Positions 1,410 to 20,000 of a stretch of 20,000 bases of DNA are shown here, piece by piece; position 1 is the stretch's first letter, and each line of letters opens with the position of its first letter. The translations under genes and the position numbers were made by a program. The notes beneath the pieces were generated by a model. The model saw nothing but the letters and a program-made list of their open reading frames with translations, made no database searches and was not told the DNA's origin. Source of the DNA: an uncultured virus (IMG/VR IMGVR_UViG_3300032250_000289) (taxonomy: Duplodnaviria > Heunggongvirae > Uroviricota > Caudoviricetes); IMG/VR virus record IMGVR_UViG_3300032250_000289. One strand, written 5' to 3'.

Positions 1410-4400
1410 CTAACAGGGACTATTTCCAACCCATATTGGCCTATATTCATTATTTATTCTAATAGCCACAACATATGTGCCGTATGGAATATTAAGTATG
1501 GTGTCTCTATTATATAGTACAACACTTCCAGAATCAGACCAATTACCGCCCTTCGTAATCAAAATGCCCGTCGTTGGGTGTGAACCAGCGCTAGGTGGTC
1601 GAATTTCATTAGATGTATAACCTTCTACAAATAAACTATTTATTGAATTTTCTAGATTGGTAATCTTGGAACCTTGTGAATTAACATCATCTAAAAATGA
1701 AGCCGAGTATAAAGAAGTGTTATCTCTAAATCTAATGTCACCCAACAACTTGAAGTCACCTTTTAGTTCGGCATAAGGTCTTGGAGAAATTGGCTGTTGA
1801 TAGACTGGGGTTATTGTTGGGCTAGCAACATTACTTTTCAGTAGAAGTAGATCATTAGAAGAATTACCACTAAATTTAAACGTTAATGTATTATCTGGAT
1901 AATCTGACCCACTCTTGTCAACAACTTCAATAGTATTGGCTTGTAGTGATAAGCTGTCAGTATTGGTTGAGTCTTTAATAACTAGCTTACCACCACTTGG
2001 CATAATTAACTGTTTGTCGCTCTGTGTTGGACCAGTAATACCATGTAATAATACTAGACTACTATTATTAGAACCTAGTAAGAAGTTATAGTTGCTATTT
2101 AAATTATTTCCAAGACCATTAGCACCGATAACTATATTAAAACTAGCAGAGCCAGATGTATTATTGTAGATATCATGACCAAACACAGTATTATTGAAAC
2201 CAGTAGTTAAACTATTAGCAGAAGTTGCTCCAAAAATAGTATTGTGATATCCAGTAGTAATTCCAGTAGCTAAAGTTGATCCAAAAATAGTATTTTTATA
2301 GCCAGTAGTGATAGAGTATAAAGATTTATATCCAACAACAGTATTATTACTTCCAATAGTACCAAGCCGACCGCTTGGGCATAAATATCCACCATATGTA
2401 TTGAATTGGTTATCTGTAAATAGTGCCCTAGCATCAACATTGTTGTGTTTATTGATAACTAAATCATGCTGGTTGCCACTACCATCAAGGAAATAGATTG
2501 ATTGTCCTTGATTAAAAGAAATATTTGGTTTAACAAATAACTTACCGTATTGAGCGGTTGCTGATGGAGAAGTGCTATGCTCATACATGCTAACTGCGGT
2601 ATTTTGATAGCCACTACTACCTATAGTAATCATTGCGTTTGGCGTTGGATTTCCAGATGGAAACATTGACATAAAACCGGTTTCGTGCAACCGCATAAAA
2701 ACGCGCTTACCAGAATCTTTATATAGACTCAGATCACCCTGTGCAGTAAAATCTGAATACTCAAGCTCTAAAGCATTTTGTAAGCAATTATTGCCACCAA
2801 CTAACTGTAGAGAAGCTTTTGTGTTAGCAAAATTTTCAGTTGATAATCTAGCGATAGCATTGCCAGTTGTGCGAATATTGAATATTGTTTTTGGAAGAAT
2901 ATCTTCAACGCCGGGAGACAGTGTTGATAAACCAAAAACCCCCTCATTATTATTTTTCATCAATGTGATAGCATTCAACATCGATGATGTATTATCATAA
3001 GATCCAATAACAAATCTATCAGTTAAAGAACCAATAACATTTAGGTTAGAGTCATCAATATATCTTAATTCAAAGCCACTAAGTTTATCTTTATTATAAT
3101 TGTCAGCATCTCTGGTTCTTCTTTTTGTGTTTGTCAAAAATCGCTGACCGATGGTTACTCCAGATTCTGGAGCAGAAATAGCAACAAAATAATTCGATAT
3201 ATCGCCAGAGTTTGCTAAGAAGTTTACGTTGCTAATTCCAGCTAAATGTCCACTTGTGCTATATAAGTCAGATGTTAGTAAATTTTCTCTAGACACATAC
3301 AGTCTATTATCATTTCTAACGAATAGTCCATAGCATCCAGAATTACTTGTGATACTTAAGTCTTTTGTTGTGATAATTTTGTTAGTTCGAAGATGTGTGC
3401 CATTATCAAGATTTAAACTAATATTACTATTCCATGAGGCTTGAGCGTAAACATTGGTTGTTGAAACACAGTCTTGACTTACTGGTGGTAGAAATGTAAA
3501 CTTATAATCTCGTTGATAGCCCACTCCGCTAGATTTGATAACGACACCAGCATTTATCAAGTCACCATCGCTCATGAAACCATATGGTGGTTCTATAACA
3601 TTACTAACATTTTGATAGTCTAATAATCCGTATGGGCCACCACCATCTATAATATCTACTTCTCCGCTAGCACCTAAGAAAAGTGTTTTTGCTGAGTATT
3701 CATTATTGGTAACTGCTTGATACTTATTTATTCTGGCTATGCCGCTAACATACAAATTCTCAAAATAACCTCCACGCCATCTAGTTGATGTTAATCCTAA
3801 ATCATAACTATTATGTTTTGCTGGTAATAAATTTCCAGAAACAAATATTGAACTATCATTACTAGATAGATTAACACCACCAGAGAAATTTATGCTATCA
3901 GCTAGATATAATTTTGACCAATAATATGAAGATGAGCCTAAATTGTATAGATTTCCACTTGAGGGCGAAGTGTGTCCACCAACTTGTAAAGCTCCGTCAT
4001 TATGAAGGGAGTTAGTATTAATACCAACTTGACCAAGTTCAAAGTCGCCATAGATTAGCGTGGTTAAACCGGAGCCAAGAGGATTGGCGCACACATACTC
4101 TTCATCAACAAAGTGAGAAGCAATAAATAATTTATTATTGGTATGTCTATTTGCAAAATAACCAGCAGCATGTCCAATAGCAACGTTGCCACTACCAACC
4201 TTGTTATGATTTAAGGAGTAGTTTCCTAATCCAACATTGGCGAAACCAACAGTATTACCGCCAAGAGCATTATAGCCGATACCAACATTGTTCTCTCCAT
4301 ATACATTACAGCTTAGTGATTTAGAACCAACTGATGTGTTTTGTTTGCCAGTATAGTTTGATCTTAAAGCATAATAACCGAAAGCTGAGTTATCTGTGCT

Positions 4401-4634
4401 AACATACCCATTCAAGCCAAGATTTTCTAAAGTGGATTCACCAGCTTTAGTAGTTCTTGTTGATGGTGTGCCAAAATTTAAACCAGTAAGATTTTGGTTA
4501 ACTGTTAATAGATGTACAGAATCTATAATATCTAATAGATTATGTCTTACATCATTGGGGGAAATATTGGCTGTAGCATTATCAGCTAACTCGCTAACTA
4601 TATTGTTAACGAGTTGTAATTTACCTACAATCAT
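1410..4634 (-). CDS. Large tail-fibre/spike-like virion protein, 1074 aa, with two blocks of 17-aa beta-solenoid repeats
   Basis: NTxxG 17-aa repeats (NTSVGSKSLSCNVYGEN-NVGIG; NTIFGSTLATGITTGYH-NTIFG); fibre-type motifs PSSGNLYNLGSSSYYW and PAKHNSYDLGLTSTRW; Gly/Ser/Asn/Thr-rich; downstream of head genes. Confidence 0.7.
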   Translation of the reverse strand: MIVGKLQLVNNIVSELADNATANISPNDVRHNLLDIIDSVHLLTVNQNLTGLNFGTPSTRTTKAGESTLENLGLNGYVSTDNSAFGYYALRSNYTGKQNTSVGSKSLSCNVYGENNVGIGYNALGGNTVGFANVGLGNYSLNHNKVGSGNVAIGHAAGYFANRHTNNKLFIASHFVDEEYVCANPLGSGLTTLIYGDFELGQVGINTNSLHNDGALQVGGHTSPSSGNLYNLGSSSYYWSKLYLADSINFSGGVNLSSNDSSIFVSGNLLPAKHNSYDLGLTSTRWRGGYFENLYVSGIARINKYQAVTNNEYSAKTLFLGASGEVDIIDGGGPYGLLDYQNVSNVIEPPYGFMSDGDLINAGVVIKSSGVGYQRDYKFTFLPPVSQDCVSTTNVYAQASWNSNISLNLDNGTHLRTNKIITTKDLSITSNSGCYGLFVRNDNRLYVSRENLLTSDLYSTSGHLAGISNVNFLANSGDISNYFVAISAPESGVTIGQRFLTNTKRRTRDADNYNKDKLSGFELRYIDDSNLNVIGSLTDRFVIGSYDNTSSMLNAITLMKNNNEGVFGLSTLSPGVEDILPKTIFNIRTTGNAIARLSTENFANTKASLQLVGGNNCLQNALELEYSDFTAQGDLSLYKDSGKRVFMRLHETGFMSMFPSGNPTPNAMITIGSSGYQNTAVSMYEHSTSPSATAQYGKLFVKPNISFNQGQSIYFLDGSGNQHDLVINKHNNVDARALFTDNQFNTYGGYLCPSGRLGTIGSNNTVVGYKSLYSITTGYKNTIFGSTLATGITTGYHNTIFGATSANSLTTGFNNTVFGHDIYNNTSGSASFNIVIGANGLGNNLNSNYNFLLGSNNSSLVLLHGITGPTQSDKQLIMPSGGKLVIKDSTNTDSLSLQANTIEVVDKSGSDYPDNTLTFKFSGNSSNDLLLLKSNVASPTITPVYQQPISPRPYAELKGDFKLLGDIRFRDNTSLYSASFLDDVNSQGSKITNLENSINSLFVEGYTSNEIRPPSAGSHPTTGILITKGGNWSDSGSVVLYNRDTILNIPYGTYVVAIRINNEYRPIWVGNSPC

Positions 4635-4646
4635 TTTTCAGCTTTC

Positions 4647-5342
4647 TTAATTGAGGCTGATTTCTAATGAGTTAGAGTCAAATTTAATATTATCGCCCGT
4701 ATATACATAGCGGGGGTTATCAAGTTTTGCATACATTAGAAGGTTGCCAGAGGCGTAATTTGATGTATCTACTACTGCTATTCCAGAAACCCATCCCCAA
4801 TCGGTTAAAGCTGTTGGAAATACAATTTGATTTGAATTTTTAATAAATCCATTTCCTTCATAGGTTGTATAACCGGGATTAGTAGCCATGCCAGACTGCT
4901 GTAGGCTTAGTGGAGCATAGAATACAACGCTAGGATGCTCTACGAACCTGTAAGACTGCGCTAAAGTATTAGGGTCTGCACTTTTAGCTGTATCAATATT
5001 TAAATATAATGGATAATAGTATCCCTTTAAACCAACTGTAATTCCAGTAGCGCTAGTACCAGATACTGTATATACTGTTGTGTTATCAACACCAACGTTA
5101 TTCCACGTTATATTGCCAACGCTTGATGGATTTCCTAGATTAATTCTAGAGTAGTTTGTTGTAACGAAGTTTGCACCTCTAGAAACACCAGAAGCTAATT
5201 CTGGAATAGTTGATCCAGTGTCTGATTCAATTGGTACACCGCTAGTTAAAGCAATGGCAATTTGAGTCGGTTTTGCAAACGATGTTCCCTTGAAAATGTG
5301 AGTCAAAAGACCAGACTCTAAATAATCAGATAATGCGGCCAT
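4647..5342 (-). CDS. Phage virion protein of the widespread small tail-fibre-associated family, with an internal insertion
   Basis: N-terminus MAALSDYLE...IAIALT and C-terminus IVFPTALTDWGWVSGIAVVD...GNLLMYAKLDNPRYVYTGDNIKF match that family from recall; AGGAG RBS. Confidence 0.7.
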   Translation of the reverse strand: MAALSDYLESGLLTHIFKGTSFAKPTQIAIALTSGVPIESDTGSTIPELASGVSRGANFVTTNYSRINLGNPSSVGNITWNNVGVDNTTVYTVSGTSATGITVGLKGYYYPLYLNIDTAKSADPNTLAQSYRFVEHPSVVFYAPLSLQQSGMATNPGYTTYEGNGFIKNSNQIVFPTALTDWGWVSGIAVVDTSNYASGNLLMYAKLDNPRYVYTGDNIKFDSNSLEISLN

Positions 5343-5386
5343 ATTTTTCTCCTAAAAGAGTCCTAAAAACTTATGATCTATTGTTA

Positions 5387-5393
5387 TATACAC
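5387..5393 (-). promoter_or_regulatory. Candidate late-promoter motif GTGTATA upstream of the 5342 gene
   Basis: GTGTATATAAC on the minus strand 44 nt upstream of the ATG, directly after the capsid terminator U-tract; recurs at 8461, 10616 and 18084. Confidence 0.55.
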
Positions 5394-5428
5394 AAAAAAA
5401 GCCACCCCCAAGCAAATGAGGGCGGCTT
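5394..5428 (-). terminator. Rho-independent terminator after the major capsid gene
   Basis: Minus strand AAGCCGCCCTCA-tttgct-TGGGGGTGGC-TTTTTTT: GC-rich stem with G:U pairs followed by a U7 tract. Confidence 0.85.
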
Positions 5429-5459
5429 AATTGTTAACCTATACTATTAGTATTATAGA

Positions 5460-6467
5460 TTAGAATGAGCCAAGAATGACTCTTCGGTTATCTAGAACAC
5501 CAAAGCCAAGTTCAGCAAAACCATAGTAACCGGCGCGCTGCTGACGGTGTAGAGTGGGATCTTCAAACACCTGTAGCTGCTCCTTAACTGGCATAACGAA
5601 ACTATCGCTATTAGCTTGGTCAAGACCAACTACTAGCTCAAGATCGCTACTCTGAACTGCGCCACCAAGATCAGTGGTGAAGAAGTTCTGATATTCCTGA
5701 CCTTCGCCTAGTTCATCTAGGTCATGAAGATTAACACCGAAGATTCTGGCGATTGAAGCGCCACCGTCTGCGGAGTTGTAGATTTCTCTACGTGTTACAT
5801 CATCAATCTGGTCAAGACCCCAACTACGAACGTCTTCAAGAGCTTCTGGGCTAACATAAAGATCGGTTAGGCTACCACGACCAACTGATGCTGAGTTACC
5901 ACCGCTATTGCGGCGCATAACTGTCTTCATAAGAGAAACTAGTCTCTTTGAGAATAGACCAGATGTTGCGTCAGCATCGAACACTAGAATGTTACGATCA
6001 ACGCCAGCGGCTAGAAGTGTGTGCCAGCCGTCATCATTCATCTTCTTTGTGAAACCAGCTTCCATAACCTGTAGGGCACGACCAACAATGTCCCATCGTG
6101 CTTCGCGGGCATAGCGAAGAAGATAGTCAACTGAAGATGTGATACTATAGGTTGGGATCATTACGTAATCGCCTTCAACACTTCTCTCTGGCACTCTACC
6201 GTGACCGGGATTGGTGTAAGCGACATGCTCACCTTCAAGGCCGGGGGAGATAAGGTCAAGAGGGAACTCTGTTGTTGAGCCGGATTCAACATTGATAACT
6301 TCGAAGATGTTACCAAGGATGTTACCGACCAAGACACCCTTACGTAAGGGTAGTTCTAAAGCCTTTGCAAACTCTCTCTGAGCGGCAGCGGCTACATTGA
6401 TATCGGAATCCCCTGACTTGCGTAGGAGGCCGATAAATTCATCACTAGGTCTTTTGTTTACGGGCAT
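5460..6467 (-). CDS. Major capsid protein (HK97-fold expected), 335 aa
   Basis: Order terminase-portal-protease-decoration-this gene; size; strong AGGAG RBS; followed by a terminator; C-terminal QVFEDPTLHRQQRAGYYGFAELGFGVLDNRRV pattern typical of capsid proteins. Confidence 0.85.
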   Translation of the reverse strand: MPVNKRPSDEFIGLLRKSGDSDINVAAAAQREFAKALELPLRKGVLVGNILGNIFEVINVESGSTTEFPLDLISPGLEGEHVAYTNPGHGRVPERSVEGDYVMIPTYSITSSVDYLLRYAREARWDIVGRALQVMEAGFTKKMNDDGWHTLLAAGVDRNILVFDADATSGLFSKRLVSLMKTVMRRNSGGNSASVGRGSLTDLYVSPEALEDVRSWGLDQIDDVTRREIYNSADGGASIARIFGVNLHDLDELGEGQEYQNFFTTDLGGAVQSSDLELVVGLDQANSDSFVMPVKEQLQVFEDPTLHRQQRAGYYGFAELGFGVLDNRRVILGSF

Positions 6468-6498: not shown

Positions 6499-6966
6499 TT
6501 AGGGAAGGTTGACTTCGACTTTGGCATAACCGTCTTCGTCCTTACTAGTAAGGAATCGACCAACCATTAGTGTGCCAGAACTGCCGGGGCTATCGGGACG
6601 AATGTTACCGGCTGTTACGTGACAAGCAAAGGCTGGGTCACCAGCGACGGGTGTGCCAGTGAGAAGGTTAGTTACAACATAACCCTTGCGGAGTACTGTA
6701 ACTTTGCCACCCTTCTGTACTTCATCCTTATGCTGATTAAGGTGAGTACGGGTTAAATCCTTATTTACTACGTCGTTAAGTAGGATACCTACTGGGCGAC
6801 TTGCTGCTGTTACAGCGGCATATGTAACAAGGTTAACACCCTGATCCATAGCTGCGCCAGAACCGGCAGTACCGTGAACAACGACACCACCGCGTGAAGC
6901 AGTGCCAGCATTGTAAAAGAAACTGATATCGGTCTGGAATTCGTATCTATCTGATTTTAGGGCCAT
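6499..6966 (-). CDS. Head decoration/capsid cement protein, 155 aa
   Basis: Between scaffold and capsid genes; Gly/Ala/Val-rich with PVGILLNDV, GGKVTVLRKGYVVTN and VGRFLTSKDEDGYAKVEVNL; AGGAG RBS. Confidence 0.7.
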   Translation of the reverse strand: MALKSDRYEFQTDISFFYNAGTASRGGVVVHGTAGSGAAMDQGVNLVTYAAVTAASRPVGILLNDVVNKDLTRTHLNQHKDEVQKGGKVTVLRKGYVVTNLLTGTPVAGDPAFACHVTAGNIRPDSPGSSGTLMVGRFLTSKDEDGYAKVEVNLP

Positions 6967-13970: not shown

Positions 13971-14215
13971 AGTGAGTATATTTTATCTATTCTAGACTCT
14001 TTTCGTATTCTTCTACAAATAATTCTCATTTTGATTGATGGATCTTGATCTAGTAATATTTTAATTAAACCATTTATTACGTCTACGCATACCATATCTG
14101 GGTCTGTAGCTGTAATAAACACCGTTGGAAATGGTGAGTTATATCCTTTTAGATTTAAATGTCTTATATTAACGTAAATGTTAGAAATGTCCAACATTAC
14201 TCTGTAGTTTTTCAT
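13967..14215 (-). CDS. Hypothetical protein, 82 aa
   Basis: Co-oriented ORF overlapping both neighbours; no recognisable motif. Confidence 0.7.
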   Translation of the reverse strand: MKNYRVMLDISNIYVNIRHLNLKGYNSPFPTVFITATDPDMVCVDVINGLIKILLDQDPSIKMRIICRRIRKESRIDKIYSL

Positions 14216-15266
14216 TTATTCTGTCATTTAACATGAGTATTACTAGTTGCTCTAGGTCACATTTTGGTTTCCATCCTAATTTTTCTTGAGCTTTAGAGGA
14301 ATCACCACGAAGATAATTTACTTCTGCTGGCCTGTAAAACTCTGGGTCTATATAAATAAAGTTTAAAGGTTCATCGATATAGAAATATTTGAAAGCCTTG
14401 TCTATAAAATCTTTTATTGTGTGTGTTTTTCCAGTACATATAACATAGTCATCTGGTTCATGTTGCTGAAGCATAATGTGCATAGCCTCAACATAATCGC
14501 CAGCATATCCCCAATCTCTACAGGATTCAATATTGCCTAATCTAAGCTTTGGAAATTTAATTTCATTAGGGGTATGTAGAATATGTTCTGCTGAGAAAGT
14601 TAAATCATTAATATTTATCTTGTGTCGTTCAGTCCAATTAATAAAGTCAACTAGCCAGTTTGTAATTTTTTTGGTGACAAACTCATCGCCACGGCGCGGA
14701 CCTTCGTGATTAAATAAAATACCAGAACTAGCGTGTAGGCCATAAGCTTCCCGGTATAGTCGAACGGCAAAATGTGCGGCACATTTAGCTATCGCATATG
14801 GTGATTGGGGAAGAAATTTTGTCTCCTCATTTTGATACTTATTTCCATGACAATCTGTGTCACAAGAATCTCCAAACATCTCGCTAGATGATGCTTGATA
14901 GAATCTTACCCACTGCATATTGTTATCTAATATAGCTTGTAAAATATTGATACAACCCTTACCGGTTATATCCCAAGTTAGCCCCGGTTGCTTAAAAGAG
15001 GTTCCAACATGCGACTGTGCTGCTAGATTATAAATTTCATCTACTTCATCATAATCTTTAAGAATATTTGTGACACTACTAACATCTGTAATATCGCCCT
15101 CAATCAATTCAAATGATGGATTTCCCTTTAGATGTTTAATTCTCTGTGTGGTATCTACGCTGCATCGTCTAGCAACACCAACAACCCTATAATCCTTAGA
15201 TAGTAAAAGATCGGCTAGATGGCTACCATCTTGTCCTGTTATTCCGAATATAATTGCAGTCTTCAT
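14181..15266 (-). CDS. gmd: GDP-mannose 4,6-dehydratase
   Basis: GITGQDGSHLA, YNLAAQSHVGTSF, FYQASSSEMFG, PQSPYAIAK (YxxxK), GILFNHEGPRRG.EFVTKKI, LGN...RDWGYAGDYV, RPAEVNYLRGDSSKA. Confidence 0.95.
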   Translation of the reverse strand: MKTAIIFGITGQDGSHLADLLLSKDYRVVGVARRCSVDTTQRIKHLKGNPSFELIEGDITDVSSVTNILKDYDEVDEIYNLAAQSHVGTSFKQPGLTWDITGKGCINILQAILDNNMQWVRFYQASSSEMFGDSCDTDCHGNKYQNEETKFLPQSPYAIAKCAAHFAVRLYREAYGLHASSGILFNHEGPRRGDEFVTKKITNWLVDFINWTERHKININDLTFSAEHILHTPNEIKFPKLRLGNIESCRDWGYAGDYVEAMHIMLQQHEPDDYVICTGKTHTIKDFIDKAFKYFYIDEPLNFIYIDPEFYRPAEVNYLRGDSSKAQEKLGWKPKCDLEQLVILMLNDRINEKLQSNVGHF

Positions 15267-15898: not shown

Positions 15899-16686
15899 TC
15901 TTTTACTGTGTCTGGTGTAAGGAATGGTTGATCAACAACCCCGTCCTCATATTTATGATAGGCTGAAAGTCTATCTTTTTCTTTCTCCATCGCCATTCTC
16001 ATCTTCTCCATCTCAATACCATACTTCTTCATAGTCTCTGGGTCTTGCATTAAGTGAGCCACCCACGACACGAAGCTTTGTTTACTATCTTCTAGTCGTT
16101 TAATACGCTGCTCTCTGGTTCCCTTCATCTCCCTTAACATTCCAGCTTTTTTACCTTGAAGCTCGCGGTAATCTTTGTTTAATGACTCCTGAGAGGCCCG
16201 TAGAGATGCTACCTGACGTTCCAAATTAAATATGTAGTCTTGGTCGCGTTGATCTTTATCAAGAGCCCTCTCGTCTTTAATCAACTTGTCAAAAGTGTTC
16301 ATGTCGATTATATTGTCTTTGCTAGACTTTAAGCACCTATTCATTAATAGTTCCAACTTAATAACGTCTACCACCTGTAATTCTTCTGTTGGAAATACAT
16401 CATCTTTAAACTGGGCAATAATACGACTCCAGTGATATTTAAATAGTTCCAACTCTTCTTCAGTAAACTGGCTTCCTAGTTCGTGATAATATGGGCGATC
16501 CTCTAATGAGAAAGCTGCCGCCTCTTCGCCCGATATCCCCACTTTAAATTTTCGCTTAACGAAGTTGTCAATCGACTCAACATCCCTATCTAATTTATGA
16601 GCGATATCTTCCACCGTCATACTGTCGATGAGCCGCCCTATGATTCGCTCTTCGTCTTTGCTAATTCTACCTTTTTTCATAACCAT
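15895..16686 (-). CDS. HTH plus coiled-coil protein, candidate terminase small subunit (start may be ATG 16680)
   Basis: N-terminal HTH-like MTVEDIAHKLDRDVESIDNFVKRK, long coiled coil, upstream of terL in the same operon; function inferred. Confidence 0.5.
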   Translation of the reverse strand: MVMKKGRISKDEERIIGRLIDSMTVEDIAHKLDRDVESIDNFVKRKFKVGISGEEAAAFSLEDRPYYHELGSQFTEEELELFKYHWSRIIAQFKDDVFPTEELQVVDVIKLELLMNRCLKSSKDNIIDMNTFDKLIKDERALDKDQRDQDYIFNLERQVASLRASQESLNKDYRELQGKKAGMLREMKGTREQRIKRLEDSKQSFVSWVAHLMQDPETMKKYGIEMEKMRMAMEKEKDRLSAYHKYEDGVVDQPFLTPDTVKE

Positions 16687-17167
16687 TATCCCCCAGTATA
16701 TTTTGTATAATAGCTATTATTTCTTCGCGTCGTTTTTTAGGAACATAAACGTCGTTTATAATCTTAAGATAATCTGACCTATAGTTTGAGGGCAGGGCGC
16801 TGTCTATAATTTTTTTAATATCGGACGCATCTATAAAGTCATCGCCGTTATTTTCATTATCGGGCACATAATCTTCATAAGATAATTGTTTGGGCGATAA
16901 GATTTTCTTTTTATCATCTTCATTCTTGTTATAGAAATTGTCGCGGACGAAATTCTTAAGACGATTACTTAGGTGAACAGAAAGAAAGTTTTCTAGTGGG
17001 CGATTGTGGTCGTATCTTTCAAGGGCATCTACGCATATAATAAACGCCTCTTGTTTTATATCATCAACTTCATAACCATTAAATGTATACTTGGGCGATA
17101 TCCTATCAACCACTGTGGATATGGAACTCATAACTTGTTGTAAACTCATGTTGGGAGGTATTTTCAT
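16667..17167 (-). CDS. Sigma70 region-2-like protein (phage sigma factor), 166 aa
   Basis: YEVDDIKQEAFIICVDALERYDHNRPLENFLSVHLSNRLKNFVRD resembles the region-2 pattern D..Qe..i....a...yd....f..y.....n.....R. Confidence 0.7.
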   Translation of the reverse strand: MKIPPNMSLQQVMSSISTVVDRISPKYTFNGYEVDDIKQEAFIICVDALERYDHNRPLENFLSVHLSNRLKNFVRDNFYNKNEDDKKKILSPKQLSYEDYVPDNENNGDDFIDASDIKKIIDSALPSNYRSDYLKIINDVYVPKKRREEIIAIIQNILGDNGYEKR

Positions 17168-17928
17168 GCTATCTCGCTAAGTAATGTATTCCATTTTTCT
17201 CCATCATAAAATTTTAAAGTTTTGGCGGTGGCGTCGTAATATAGGTTGCCTTCTTTTAAAGAGGGCGAGTCTGATGGGTTAAGTTGAAGATTGTTGGTTG
17301 ATAAGTTTTTAACAACTAACTTAGACGTTTTAAGAGATAGTTGGTTTTTGTATGACGAGATAGCATCTTTTATGTAATTTATAAACTCATCACTATTAGT
17401 ATCTAAACTCACAATATCATCTTTTACGCGAGCTAAGAAAGAATTCTCTTGTAAGCTGACCATGTTGGCGCAACAAGAGTCGTGAGAAGTTAATACTGAG
17501 TGGGGCAGAATAAGAGCTTCTTGATGAGAGTGGGGGAATGTTGAATAAGCAATAATATATTCATGGGGCTGGGGCATAAAAGATGAAGAGCCATTATGGC
17601 AGGCTGAAACCTGAGAAGAGTTGGGGCCATAACAAATGGGGATAGATCGTTCTAAGTAATATTGGTCATCTATCTTTTTAACGTTACCGACCCCTCTTTC
17701 ATGTTGGATAACTTTATCATTAGATATAAGTTCCAAAACGTAGAAGAAAGAGTTTTCTCCAAACATTCTACGGAAAGAGTGGCATTTATTTGTTGTGCCA
17801 CATTCTATACTGCGCGCTAATTCAGCGTTACATTCAGCGAGGGCTTTTGTGCCAGCTAGCCTATAGTTAGTTCCATCTTCATTAATTACTAATTCAAGTG
17901 CTGGAATCTTGCTCGTCTTTATCTTCAT
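17164..17928 (-). CDS. Hypothetical, probably virion-associated protein, 254 aa
   Basis: C-terminal EGNLYYDATAKTLKFYDGEKW is a motif common in phage fibre/structural proteins; ATGA-coupled to the next gene. Confidence 0.6.
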   Translation of the reverse strand: MKIKTSKIPALELVINEDGTNYRLAGTKALAECNAELARSIECGTTNKCHSFRRMFGENSFFYVLELISNDKVIQHERGVGNVKKIDDQYYLERSIPICYGPNSSQVSACHNGSSSFMPQPHEYIIAYSTFPHSHQEALILPHSVLTSHDSCCANMVSLQENSFLARVKDDIVSLDTNSDEFINYIKDAISSYKNQLSLKTSKLVVKNLSTNNLQLNPSDSPSLKEGNLYYDATAKTLKFYDGEKWNTLLSEIA

Positions 17929-18064
17929 CTTTGTCCTCTAGTGATCCTAGTAGTTCCGACATTGGAATGTCTGGTTTGTTAATTTCATTTTCAATTTCAG
18001 ACTTTAAAGAGGCCGTTGCTCTACAGTCTAATTGAGATTCAATTGTAATTGGTTTGTTGCTCAT
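17894..18064 (-). CDS. Small acidic protein, 56 aa (MSNKPITIESQLDCRATASLKSEIENEINKPDIPMSELLGSLEDKDEDKDEQDSST); first gene of the leftward operon
   Basis: ATG 18064 with AGGAG RBS at 18071-18075; TGA at 17894-17896; not in the ORF track. Confidence 0.75.
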   Translation of the reverse strand: MSNKPITIESQLDCRATASLKSEIENEINKPDIPMSELLGSLEDKDEDKDEQDSST

Positions 18065-18083
18065 AATTTTCTCCTGTACCTAT

Positions 18084-18090
18084 TATACAC
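18084..18090 (-). promoter_or_regulatory. Candidate late-promoter motif GTGTATA(ATA) at the head of the leftward operon
   Basis: GTGTATAATAG 19 nt upstream of ATG 18064; includes TATAAT but no TTGACA-like -35. Confidence 0.6.
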
Positions 18091-18240
18091 TGATAATAAC
18101 AATATTACCAAATAGGGGCTATGGGGGAGGATTGGGTAATACATAAGGATAATTTTTGGTTATTGTGAATGAACCACCCCCGAGTTTTTCCGCAGTTTGC
18201 CTAGCTTAACTAATGAAGATAAAACCCCCACCTTATCTAT

Positions 18241-18256
18241 ACTGCCTATCTTAACA
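18241..18256 (+). repeat. 16-bp direct repeat copy 1 (ACTGCCTATCTTAACA), preceded by AAACCCCC
   Basis: 15/16 identity to 19612-19627. Confidence 0.8.
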
Positions 18257-18263
18257 TTTTACG

Positions 18264-18341
18264 TAAGTCGTTATGTATCAAAGGTTTAGTGTCTCCACTC
18301 CCCGCCCAACTCGTCGTAAGTCTATATCTGACAACACTTTA
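18264..18341. repeat. Dyad-pair element copy 1: two TAA-N4-WT-N7-AA-N4-TTA boxes (18264-18288, 18317-18341) around a GC-rich 28-bp spacer
   Basis: TAAGTCGTTATGTATCAAAGGTTTA and TAAGTCTATATCTGACAACACTTTA; the first contains an exact IHF consensus WATCAANNNNTTR at 18276-18288. Confidence 0.75.
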
Positions 18342-18354
18342 CGTCGAGTGTAGA

Positions 18355-18370
18355 CGCATACGGTGTGCCA
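18355..18370 (-). promoter_or_regulatory. Sigma54 (RpoN) -24/-12-like box, leftward
   Basis: Minus strand TGGCACACCGTATGCG: TGGCAC with GG-N10-GC spacing. Confidence 0.55.
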
Positions 18371-18436
18371 TTCTGTAAAAAAATATTGTGATTCATTTGG
18401 CATGAAAATATATTTAGAAAAATCCAAAGATTTTGC

Positions 18437-18464
18437 TTGCAAGTGTCGATCTATACTGTATAAT
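18437..18464 (+). promoter_or_regulatory. Sigma70-type early promoter P1
   Basis: TTGCAA-N16-TATAAT with AT-rich upstream tract. Confidence 0.7.
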
Positions 18465-18501
18465 GAAAGCACAAGAGAACAACGAAGCAAAGGAAAAGAA
18501 A

Positions 18502-18705
18502 ATGAACAACAACGAAATCAAAATTGGCAGCAACGTAGTGTGGAACTTTGTGTTCGAAAGGGCTGAAGATTCTGGGGTAGTTGTAGAGATCAAGGGAGAT
18601 AAGGTATCTGTGGAATATAAGGTGATGGGCAAGGTATATAGGGATATGTTGAGCATGGACGAAATCATGCTGGAGTCGGAATATAATTCGCAATATTCTT
18701 TCTAA
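18502..18705 (+). CDS. Small early protein, 67 aa, possibly an SH3/KOW-like beta-barrel
   Basis: ATG after AAGGAAAAGAAA; MNNNEIKIGSNVVWNF...SGVVVEIKGDKVSVEY; start revised from the track's 18433. Confidence 0.8.
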   Translation: MNNNEIKIGSNVVWNFVFERAEDSGVVVEIKGDKVSVEYKVMGKVYRDMLSMDEIMLESEYNSQYSF

Positions 18706-18710
18706 GGTAC

Positions 18711-18739
18711 TTGACACGGGCCAACCGATACTATATAAT
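18711..18739 (+). promoter_or_regulatory. Sigma70 consensus promoter P2
   Basis: TTGACA-N17-TATAAT, exact consensus. Confidence 0.9.
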
Positions 18740-18773
18740 ACAGAGACAAGAGAAAAGGAAAAGGAATAGAAAA

Positions 18774-18932
18774 ATGAAAACGTTTTACTTCTACAGTTTT
18801 GATGGTCACAAGTTTATCGGTCAAGCTGATGCAGCCGATTGGATGGTAGCTCGCAAGATTGTTGCAGATGCAACAGGCTTTCCAGTAGATGACATGCTTC
18901 CCTATAGCTCAAAGAATATTTGGCAATTCTAA
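18774..18932 (+). CDS. Small early protein, 52 aa (MKTFYFYSFDGHKFIGQ...)
   Basis: AAGGA RBS, own promoter P2; start revised from the track's 18711. Confidence 0.8.
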   Translation: MKTFYFYSFDGHKFIGQADAADWMVARKIVADATGFPVDDMLPYSSKNIWQF

Positions 18933-18942
18933 GCTAATGGGC

Positions 18943-18971
18943 TTGACAGGATATAGCCGATACTATATAAT
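18943..18971 (+). promoter_or_regulatory. Sigma70 consensus promoter P3
   Basis: TTGACA-N17-TATAAT; shares CCGATACTATATAATACAG with P2. Confidence 0.9.
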
Positions 18972-19004
18972 ACAGGCACAAGGAAACAAACGATGGAAAA
19001 GAAA

Positions 19005-19148
19005 ATGATCTACTGGAATACCTCTAATCGTACAGGCGATAGGTATGAGGTATGGTATGATGGTAAGGTAGTCGCACGACACATTACCTTCAATGAATGT
19101 TGGGCGCTCGTTGAATCACTCCAAGCAAAAGAAGAGGTATGCGTATGA
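19005..19148 (+). CDS. Small early protein, 47 aa (MIYWNTSNRTGDRYEVWYDGKVVARHITFNECWALVESLQAKEEVCV; alternative ATG 18993)
   Basis: GGAAAAGAAAATG leader after P3; TGA overlaps the next ATG; not in the ORF track. Confidence 0.75.
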   Translation: MIYWNTSNRTGDRYEVWYDGKVVARHITFNECWALVESLQAKEEVCV

Positions 19149-19450
19149 CACACTACGAAGCTACTCAGATGGTACATGGTAAGACTAAGCGTAACACTCG
19201 TAAGGTAGGTAACAATACATATGCAGAGATACTGCCCGATGGTAGTGTAGCTATTATCCTACATGGTACGACTGTTGTACGTATTCATCCCGATAACAGT
19301 GCTACACTCAATACGGGTGGATGGTATAGCAGTACCACTAAGGATAGGATGAACAAGTATTCACCTGTACGTGTGTACCAGTGTAAGGGCGAATGGTATC
19401 TCAACAATGATGATAACACGCCATATGAGGATGGTATGACTGTACGGTAG
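19145..19450 (+). CDS. Uncharacterised phage early protein, about 101 aa
   Basis: GAGG RBS, ATGA coupling to the upstream ORF; motif LHGTTVV...LNTGGWYSSTTKDRMN recalled from a common phage hypothetical family. Confidence 0.8.
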   Translation: MTHYEATQMVHGKTKRNTRKVGNNTYAEILPDGSVAIILHGTTVVRIHPDNSATLNTGGWYSSTTKDRMNKYSPVRVYQCKGEWYLNNDDNTPYEDGMTVR

Positions 19451-19475
19451 TACAGTAGTGTACAACGACTCGACG

Positions 19476-19553
19476 TAAACCCTTGGTACGTAAGGACTTA
19501 GGGCGAATCGGGCGGGCCGCATTTGACGTAACTCCTTATCCCATAAGGGTTTA
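19476..19553. repeat. Dyad-pair element copy 2 (19476-19500, 19529-19553), inverted relative to copy 1
   Basis: TAAACCCTTGGTACGTAAGGACTTA and TAACTCCTTATCCCATAAGGGTTTA; spacer GGGCGGG is the complement of CCCGCCC in copy 1; flank ACTCGACGTAAA is the reverse complement of TTTACGTCGAGT. Confidence 0.8.
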
Positions 19554-19611
19554 CAGCACGTTTTTGTAGTACCCAAGCTAATCCGGTAGCCAAACCCCCC
19601 AGTTTACGCAA

Positions 19612-19627
19612 ACTACCTATCTTAACA
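19612..19627 (+). repeat. 16-bp direct repeat copy 2 (ACTACCTATCTTAACA), preceded by AAACCCCCC
   Basis: 15/16 identity to 18241-18256. Confidence 0.8.
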
Positions 19628-19630
19628 CAC

Positions 19631-19646
19631 AGCAAATATCGTGCCA
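19631..19646 (-). promoter_or_regulatory. Sigma54 (RpoN) -24/-12 consensus box, leftward
   Basis: Minus strand TGGCACGATATTTGCT, an exact match to TGGCACG-N4-TTGCW. Confidence 0.7.
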
Positions 19647-19710
19647 ATTGAATAGAAAATACTGAAAAGTTTTGTCAAAATCTCTTGACAATATTCTTGG
19701 AATTTTTCCC

Positions 19711-19738
19711 TTGCAAGTTCAAGAAGGGATGGTATAAT
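19711..19738 (+). promoter_or_regulatory. Sigma70-type promoter P4 (extended -10)
   Basis: TTGCAA-N16-TATAAT with TGnTATAAT. Confidence 0.75.
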
Positions 19739-19780
19739 GTCGATATAAGAAGTAAGAAAGAAAGAAAGAAGGATAAGAAA

Positions 19781-19909
19781 ATGGAAATGATCAAAATCAC
19801 AAAAAATACAACTGCAATGGTTCGAAATGGCAAGGTAATCTACCTTGTGCAAAATGGAAAAATTACCCAAGATCCTCTGAAAGTTCGATATTTTCAAAGA
19901 ATGATTTAA
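19781..19909 (+). CDS. Small basic early protein, 42 aa (MEMIKITKNTTAMVRNGKVIYLVQNGKITQDPLKVRYFQRMI)
   Basis: AAGGATAAGAAAATG leader after P4; start revised from the track's 19685. Confidence 0.75.
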   Translation: MEMIKITKNTTAMVRNGKVIYLVQNGKITQDPLKVRYFQRMI

Positions 19910-19912
19910 GGG

Positions 19913-19940
19913 TTGACAACTAAAAAGACGATGCTATAAT
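19913..19940 (+). promoter_or_regulatory. Sigma70-type promoter P5 (extended -10)
   Basis: TTGACA-N16-TATAAT with TGnTATAAT. Confidence 0.85.
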
Positions 19941-19972
19941 AGAGAAAAGAACAAAGGACAAAGGAAAAGAAA

Positions 19973-20000
19973 ATGATGACTCTCGACAAGGTTATGGCAG
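19973..20000 (+). CDS. Start of another early ORF (MMTLDKVMA...), truncated by the window edge
   Basis: AAGGAAAAGAAAATG leader identical to that at 18490-18504; follows P5. Confidence 0.7.

Follow-up and report, generated by a model that had tools for sequence, protein, structure and literature searches.

We analysed a stretch of 20,000 nt from an uncultured virus of the Caudoviricetes (IMG/VR record IMGVR_UViG_3300032250_000289), referred to here at its full length as the window, in which two boxes on the minus strand, box 1 and box 2, resemble the −24/−12 elements read by sigma-54 (RpoN). A long minus-strand operon reads leftward from 18064 to position 1 and encodes a GDP-mannose dehydratase, HNH and ERCC4 nucleases, a ClpP-like protease, the large terminase and virion proteins, while small genes run rightward on the plus strand from 18502, each preceded by a near-consensus sigma-70 promoter. 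No isolate phage matched the window DNA. The complete 192-kb IMG/VR record G003 shares the gene order of the window and has a capsid protein 66% identical, indicating that the window most likely comes from a phage of 190-240 kb with a DnaE-type polymerase, RIIA, UvsX and giant virion open reading frames (ORFs). Another RNA or gene underlying the boxes was rejected, because there was no Rfam family match in 17800-20000 and no tRNA was found. The intergenic region that contains box 1 and its surroundings comprise the following features.

19139-19450, plus strand: early gene of family PF23790 (Kyano_Gp96), around whose homologues the boxes of related genomes cluster
19466-19560, no strand: palindromic linker element with four conserved arms (CGTAA..CTT / AAG..TTACG) and a GC-rich core
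19631-19646, minus strand: box 1, TGGCACGATATTTGCT, an exact sigma-54-type −24/−12 box
19672-19691, no strand: TTGTCAA-N6-TTGACAA, a perfect inverted repeat of 7 bp that separates box 1 from the sigma-70 promoter
19711-19738, plus strand: early sigma-70-type promoter, TTGCAA-16-TATAAT with a TG extension (10 of 12 positions), which drives ORF 19781-19909

Box 1 is an exact and conserved sigma-54-type box

In the sigma-54 consensus, TGGCAC-N5-TTGCW, exactly 10 bp separate the GG at −24 from the GC at −12. Box 1 matches TGGCACNNNNNTTGCW with 0 mismatches, its GG being at 19645-19644 and its GC at 19633-19632, in agreement with an earlier note on this DNA, which had read an exact RpoN consensus on the minus strand at this site. 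The pattern TGGCAC-N5-TTGCT occurs once in the window, as compared with 0.01 matches expected, and 2 of 200 shuffles reached this count. The predicted sigma-54 start lies at about 19620 on the minus strand, and the box faces the 3' end of ORF 19139-19450 and is antisense to ORFs 18502-19450, so that the geometry proposed in the same note holds. TTGGCA might also be read as the −35 of a leftward sigma-70 promoter (9 of 12 positions), which we rejected because the would-be −10 is not conserved and TTTGCT, in the would-be spacer, is.

BLAST comparison of 17901-20000 with related loci showed that the stretch 19631-19790, which begins exactly at box 1, recurs in many of them and often several times in each. 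Within a set of 25 distinct copies of this module from other phage contigs, chosen by a similarity that reaches the box, GG-N10-GC is kept in 24, the exception (L011) having GT at −12. We also counted promoters of the box-1 type (TATAATGnCGATATA) independently of the box, and 67 of 86 distinct promoters have a box at most 200 nt upstream, oriented backward only (36 cases), in both directions (17) or forward only (14); the corresponding figures for two other promoter types are 4 of 23 and 1 of 38. The GG-N10-GC geometry, on whose conservation in homologous regions the earlier note had made its proposal depend, is therefore retained for box 1, together with the strict spacing described below.

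A motif family in related phages

Motif counts were made in 620 kb of DNA, comprising the window and 80 loci kept from 109 confirmed IMG/VR relatives of the early gene 19139-19450. The pattern TGGCA-N6-TTGC matched 264 times, whereas 20 shuffles gave 3.25 matches on average and never more than 9, so that the excess is 80-fold. Without deduplication, 191 of these matches face opposite to the direction of the early genes and 73 along it. Spacing is strict, with 197 distinct copies at N6 and only 1-6 at each of N2-N5 and N7-N11. The consensus of 200 distinct copies is a motif of 18-19 bp, TTTGGCAYRRnATTTGCT, in which the positions not fixed by the search pattern (the two T before TGGCA; Y, R and R after it; A and T before TTGC; and the T after it) hold 0.8-1.1 bit, as compared with at most 0.34 bit per position in the flanks; nothing is conserved downstream of the box. 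These unfixed positions match the degenerate sigma-54 consensus. The motif likewise resembles sigma-54 sites of E. coli such as CTGGCACTGGTTTTGCT, given in the available part of PMC4591121.

Copies of the box are found in different module types and on either strand, and they may be paired in tandem, convergently or divergently, indicating that the box is kept for itself and is not carried along with its flanks. Overlapping pairs lie 18-27 bp apart, face-to-face pairs 18-19 bp apart, and convergent pairs form 35-bp palindromes. Four complete relatives, with genomes of 190-238 kb, contain 2, 7, 6 and 4 strict boxes, and a reversed-pattern control gave 0. The motif itself is an observation, as are its excess over shuffles, strict spacing, conservation, location in linkers and biased orientation, and box 1 belongs to a selected family of motifs whose sequence and geometry are those of a sigma-54 site; which protein reads this motif we infer below.

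It is very improbable that box 1 has no function, as a chance match or as the passenger of a mobile promoter cassette conserved by recent common descent. Such an origin would agree with the single exact box in the window, with a box 2 that is at chance level and decaying in the closest relative, and with the shared descent of the cassette copies. However, it leaves unexplained why 200 distinct copies keep the box amid uninformative flanks, why module contexts unrelated to one another share the box, in either orientation, and why a strictly spaced motif so far exceeds its frequency in shuffles.

We also scanned IMG/VR with the box alone and analysed 80 loci of at least 151 stretches. One of them (L177, 389-4018, in the 221-kb contig G023) contains five gene-strand boxes situated 16-61 nt upstream of ORFs, without sigma-70 consensus promoters, and another (L159, 3983-5265) contains four gene-strand boxes 43-217 nt upstream of ORFs. 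By their sequence and position, the boxes of both loci may be true phage sigma-54 promoters. A 10.5-kb IMG/VR contig (L146-L150) holds 14 boxes within about 6 kb, with CTGCCATTTTGGCAG palindromes repeated between them.

A one-mismatch box in the window, TGGCACACCCGTCGCT (6643-6658, minus strand), falls within a gene of 155 aa and shares the strand of the capsid gene, which follows 176 nt later. We rejected it as an element of the capsid gene, because G003 has no strict TGGCAY-N5-TnGCW outside 3938-6303 and none before its capsid gene; this box is probably due to chance.

Architecture of the linkers

In the related loci examined, small early genes are separated by linkers with a usual order, namely gene, palindromic element, box (single, tandem, convergent or divergent), about 65 nt, sigma-70 promoter and gene, and the same linker modules recur with different genes between them. 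The palindromic element of the window directly follows the stop codon of ORF 19139-19450 and is followed by a run of five T. This 90-nt element recurs many times per related locus and on both strands, with 110 distinct plus-strand copies. The window copy has a predicted fold of −39.9 kcal/mol; 46 copies yielded no consensus fold and no covariation beyond that of column shuffles (71.8% paired versus 72.4%), which gives an RNA structure no support, and a terminator scan of the window found 0 terminators. The element is thus a palindromic linker and not a proven terminator.

Between box 1 and the promoter, the inverted repeat 19672-19691 lies some 62-64 nt away from each of the two predicted starts and is near-invariant in an alignment of 26 rows. 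It occurs at a matching distance in 34 of 207 distinct boxes, all of the box-1 module type, and this confinement to one module type led us to discard TGTCA-N8-TGACA as a general enhancer. The promoter itself, TTGCAA-16-TGGTATAAT when written out, is conserved together with its transcribed leader, GTCGATATAAGA.

The earlier note had also described IHF-like sites downstream of the predicted starts, a layout that did not survive comparison with chance. The window contains 5 matches to the IHF consensus WATCAANNNNTTR, against 2.4 expected, and 22 of 200 shuffles reached 5. Only one site (18276-18288) is near a box, downstream of box 2, and none is near box 1.

Box 2 is a decaying copy in a second module type

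Box 2 belongs to a module type different from that of box 1, with these features.

18082-18111, minus strand: sigma-70-like promoter, TTGGTA-18-TATAAT (10 of 12 positions), directly before the first ORF of the leftward operon (18064)
18301-18349, minus strand: partial inverted copy of the linker element, an inverted repeat of 49 nt, 73% complementary to 19468-19516 and adjoining box 2
18355-18370, minus strand: box 2, TGGCACACCGTATGCG, a decayed box with TTGC changed to ATGC and the final W to G
18396-18415, plus strand: half-box variant, TTTGGCATGAAAATATATTT, with a TGGCAT left half and TATAT replacing TTGC, its centre about 65 nt before the point where promoter 18437-18464 starts
18437-18464, plus strand: early sigma-70-type promoter, TTGCAA-16-TATAAT, which drives ORF 18502-18705

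GG-N10-GC is present at 18370-18355, as the earlier note had reported, though with 2 mismatches to the consensus. Matches of this quality number 16 in the window, as compared with 8.0 ± 2.8 expected, and box 2 alone is therefore not above chance. What gives it weight is its location, since 13 of 26 aligned module rows, the window row included, have a box or a remnant at this position, as read from the alignment. In the closest relative (L001, PF23790 protein 92% identical) the GG of box 2 has been lost. Box 2 is thus a decaying copy of the box-1 element.

The predicted start of box 2 is at about 18343 on the minus strand, and the box faces some 280 nt of non-coding DNA and then the operon starting at 18064, so that it does point left towards the operon, as had been proposed. 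Its proposed role as the promoter of the late operon is nevertheless not supported, given that the copy is decayed, that its GG is missing in L001 and that the sigma-70-like promoter 18111-18082 stands directly before the operon. By its sequence and location, the latter is a nearer promoter candidate, and box 2 is not needed for this purpose.

The half-box element TTTGGCATGAAATTATATTT occurs on the plus strand in 25 of 26 aligned rows of the box-2 module, centred about 65 nt upstream of the promoter start, and TTGGCA-N5/6-TATAT was found in 42 distinct contexts in related loci. Separately, a sigma-28-like sequence, CAAAG-N16-GTCGAT (18425-18451, plus strand), overlaps the promoter 18437-18464. 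The corresponding pattern, YAAAG-N15/16-GYCGATA, lies over sigma-70 early promoters of the related loci (L001-L080) in 140 distinct copies, all on the gene strand, with 0-1 copies at other spacings. Its spacing is 1-2 bp longer than what we take to be the FliA consensus.

Sigma-54, activators and the case for working promoters

Searches of the four complete related genomes gave no match to Sigma54_DBD. For the activator domain Sigma54_activat (PF00158), no protein of these genomes reached the family score alone; a weak match in G002 (15.2 bits alone, 29.1 with its in-frame neighbours) was left unexamined. The only PF00158 match in the contigs of the box scan, in G023, belongs to a ClpB-like AAA+ protein, and was rejected as a phage-encoded activator.

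These data bear on whether the boxes are working, enhancer-dependent sigma-54 promoters. Leftward RNAs starting at about 19620 and 18343 would then tie the shut-off of early genes to a host signal: once a host activator was switched on, the RNAs would cross the palindromic element and run antisense to the early genes. The consensus and spacing are of promoter grade, the backward orientation is preferred (191 of 264), the perfect inverted repeat, about 62 nt upstream of the predicted start of box 1, could seat an activator, and a capacity of the motif for promoter activity is suggested by the contigs in which forward copies precede ORFs. However, no activator gene was found in the phages, the G023 match being a ClpB-like cross-hit and the unexamined G002 match weak, the inverted repeat is tied to a single module type, 73 of 264 matches face forward, and the many face-to-face pairs 18-19 bp apart could not both fire. 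Nor is anything conserved after the box, and IHF sites are at chance level. We consider it unlikely that the boxes work in this manner.

The PF23790 gene and other candidate readers

The boxes concentrate around the PF23790 gene, with 15 of the 19 strict boxes of the four complete relatives lying at most 3.5 kb from it. In the box-only scan, the gene is present in 25 of 48 loci with two or more boxes and in 1 of 32 single-box loci; by contig, 15 of 35 multi-box contigs hold the gene and 20 of 35 lack it within 4 kb. Its product is modelled with high confidence (predicted local distance difference test score, pLDDT, 92.9), with no sequence match in PDB and no match to a DNA-binding fold (best Foldseek E value 0.065; best Z score in a wide search 3.7). 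Likewise, no box reaching the threshold of at least 10 of 11 core positions was present in the early region of 3 of 3 isolate phages with the gene. The absence of a DNA-binding fold match and of boxes in the three isolates led us to reject the PF23790 protein as the reader. The gene itself lies 1-6 kb from the left end of most of the isolate genomes listed and elsewhere in other records, possibly through permuted starts, and within the terminal repeat of Caulobacter phages; PF23790 seems to be an immediate-early gene that is widespread among Pseudomonadota phages, and its modelled fold matched no solved structure.

A sigma-70-family factor is encoded near the head of the leftward operon (16667-17167, minus strand; Sigma70_r2, 26.2 bits with a cut-off of 24; phrog_1740), presumably for middle or late promoters. 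It was rejected as the reader because the halves of the box are only 5 bp apart, which we regard as impossible for a −35/−10 pair.

There is a realistic chance that the box is instead the operator of some other DNA-binding protein, of phage or host, which resembles a sigma-54 site by convergence and controls the adjacent early promoters, for example by shutting them off after the early phase. An operator would account for the direct repeats TTGGCA ... TTTGCT, one helical turn (11 bp) apart, and for the 35-bp palindromes made by overlapping convergent pairs. It would also suit the half-box, which lacks the −12 GC and stands at about 65 nt, where the first promoter type has a different palindrome, as well as the clustering around the PF23790 gene and the absence of rpoN from both bins that contain the cassette (see below). 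Conversely, the motif matches all 11 core sigma-54 positions and also follows the consensus at the degenerate ones, at the exact spacing, which is unlikely for an unrelated protein, and for the PF23790 protein, otherwise the obvious candidate, no match to a DNA-binding fold was obtained. The link to its gene is also loosened by the boxless isolates and by the multi-box contigs without the gene nearby.

Candidate hosts of the phages

Two metagenome-assembled genomes (MAGs), one from Gammaproteobacteria and one from Ca. Planktophila, contain a 20-mer of the cassette; its presence at one orthologous Lysinibacillus locus was taken for a chance match. Since the bins represent different phyla, one host assignment or both must be wrong, and this evidence is weak. 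Both MAG contigs with the cassette are small, and the larger, from the Planktophila bin, has only small ORFs, mostly on one strand; we took it as an unannotated phage fragment. Among isolate records with a PF23790 homologue, 47 of 47 infect Pseudomonadota, which favours a host among the proteobacteria. When 203 genomes from the family of the Gammaproteobacteria bin were searched at the DNA level, only conserved-gene matches and short, weak ones were retrieved, with no clear spacer. Isolate homologues of TerL, the PF23790 protein and DnaE were distant only, and psbA and WhiB were absent from the complete relatives.

A proposed silent docking site for sigma-54 polymerase

The RpoN holoenzyme forms stable closed complexes and depends on an enhancer-binding ATPase to proceed. 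We tentatively favour, at somewhat less than even confidence, the interpretation that box 1 is a docking site for host sigma-54 polymerase, bound but silent, and not a gene promoter. Host sigma-54 holoenzyme would bind the box as a stable closed complex without being activated, and the bound complex could serve as an insulator or roadblock between cassettes, or as a sink for sigma-54 as phage DNA multiplies. The box is one part of a composite linker (palindromic element, box and sigma-70 early promoter) of a group of uncultured 190-240-kb phages, shuffled among them in the manner of the promoter-early stem-loop (PeSL) cassettes of T4-type phages (PMC2839356, PMC4122927, from the available parts).

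Both the identity of sigma-54 as the reader and the effect of its binding we infer from sequence and arrangement. The boxes are mostly backward, some pairs overlap, no gene lies downstream and no activator was found, which argues against a gene promoter; the anatomy fits either a bound silent complex or the operator of another protein. Of the two possibilities raised in the earlier note, a decoy or repressor-like bound complex fits this anatomy better than a promoter does. The forward, gene-strand boxes of L177 and L159 sit as a polymerase site would. In E. coli, sigma-54 occupies many sites as inactive holoenzyme, antisense sites included, according to the part of PMC4591121 available.

Several observations weigh against a docking site. 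Sigma54_DBD is absent from both MAGs with the cassette, and among the Gammaproteobacteria MAG and 15 relatives it is present in 7 and absent from 9 (8 of the 15 relatives). The variant at 18396-18415, with its TGGCAT half and no GC at −12, hints at a reader of the left half only. Finally, each genome of 190-240 kb has only 2-7 boxes, which cluster within a few kb, and this is a small number for a sink.

Comparison with known systems

The phage boxes share with bacterial sigma-54 promoters the TGGCAC-N5-TTGCW core, GG and GC 10 bp apart, and the preferences at degenerate positions. Unlike those promoters, most have no gene downstream in their own orientation, convergent boxes overlap, IHF sites occur at chance level, and the four complete phages yielded no sigma-54 gene and no activator, save for the weak G002 match. 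Another parallel is with the intragenic and antisense sigma-54 sites of E. coli, which likewise face away from genes and are thought to be bound without firing; according to the available part of the source (PMC4591121), the E. coli sites have a scattered distribution, for the most part within genes, and many were judged non-functional. The phage boxes, in contrast, lie between genes, are close to the consensus, recur in linkers of fixed architecture and have been conserved from one phage genome to another.

With the PeSLs, as described in the parts of PMC2839356 and PMC4122927 at hand, the phage linkers share a strong sigma-70-like early promoter next to a palindromic element, and they too flank small ORFan genes in a plastic region where relatives differ by cassette swaps. 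No sigma-54-type box is described in those parts of the two papers. The palindromic element of the phages also differs, being a 90-nt four-arm repeat without covariation support in which the terminator scan found none, and their polymerase is of the DnaE type, unlike that of T4. Gp23 had no match in the four complete relatives, but the positive control also gave none.

A literature search, covering titles and the beginnings of abstracts, and the available parts of the PeSL papers contained no description of the motif in phages.

By common assumption, the early regions of phages depend on the main sigma factor of the host, which leaves a conserved, consensus-grade sigma-54 site that faces away from genes beside strong early promoters unaccounted for. 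If sigma-54 reads the box, then either a silent polymerase complex would act as a structural or titrating element, or early-gene shut-off would be coupled to host signalling; if another protein does, a regulator with sigma-54-like specificity would control a large family of mobile promoter cassettes. A docking site would mean that a sigma factor binding site is used without transcription, and a sponge would strip the cell of sigma-54, and hence of sigma-54-dependent stress and repair responses, as phage copies rise. The wider claim, that a widespread group of uncultured phages plants consensus-grade sigma-54 docking sites in the linkers of its shuffling early-gene cassettes and uses the closed complex as a roadblock, insulator or sponge without transcription, is possible, although we regard it as less likely than not.

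Neighbouring genes and minor features

Further promoters of the early genes match the consensus fully.

18711, 18943 and 19913, plus strand: promoters TTGACA-16/17-TATAAT (12 of 12 positions)

The GDP-mannose 4,6-dehydratase gene (14181-15266, minus strand; PF16363, 1.4e-106) lies within the phage operon, and G003 has a similar gene in the same place. The structural arm of G003 (L101-L105) includes giant ORFs of 6899, 4221, 2760 and 1858 aa, and the genome has one tRNA-Ile(TAT). In the window, a direct repeat, AAACCCCC-N15-CCTATCTTAACA, is present on the plus strand in both intergenic regions (18221-18256 and 19592-19627), with a weaker copy at 18177-18211; the copy at 19592-19627 is situated just downstream of the predicted start of box 1.

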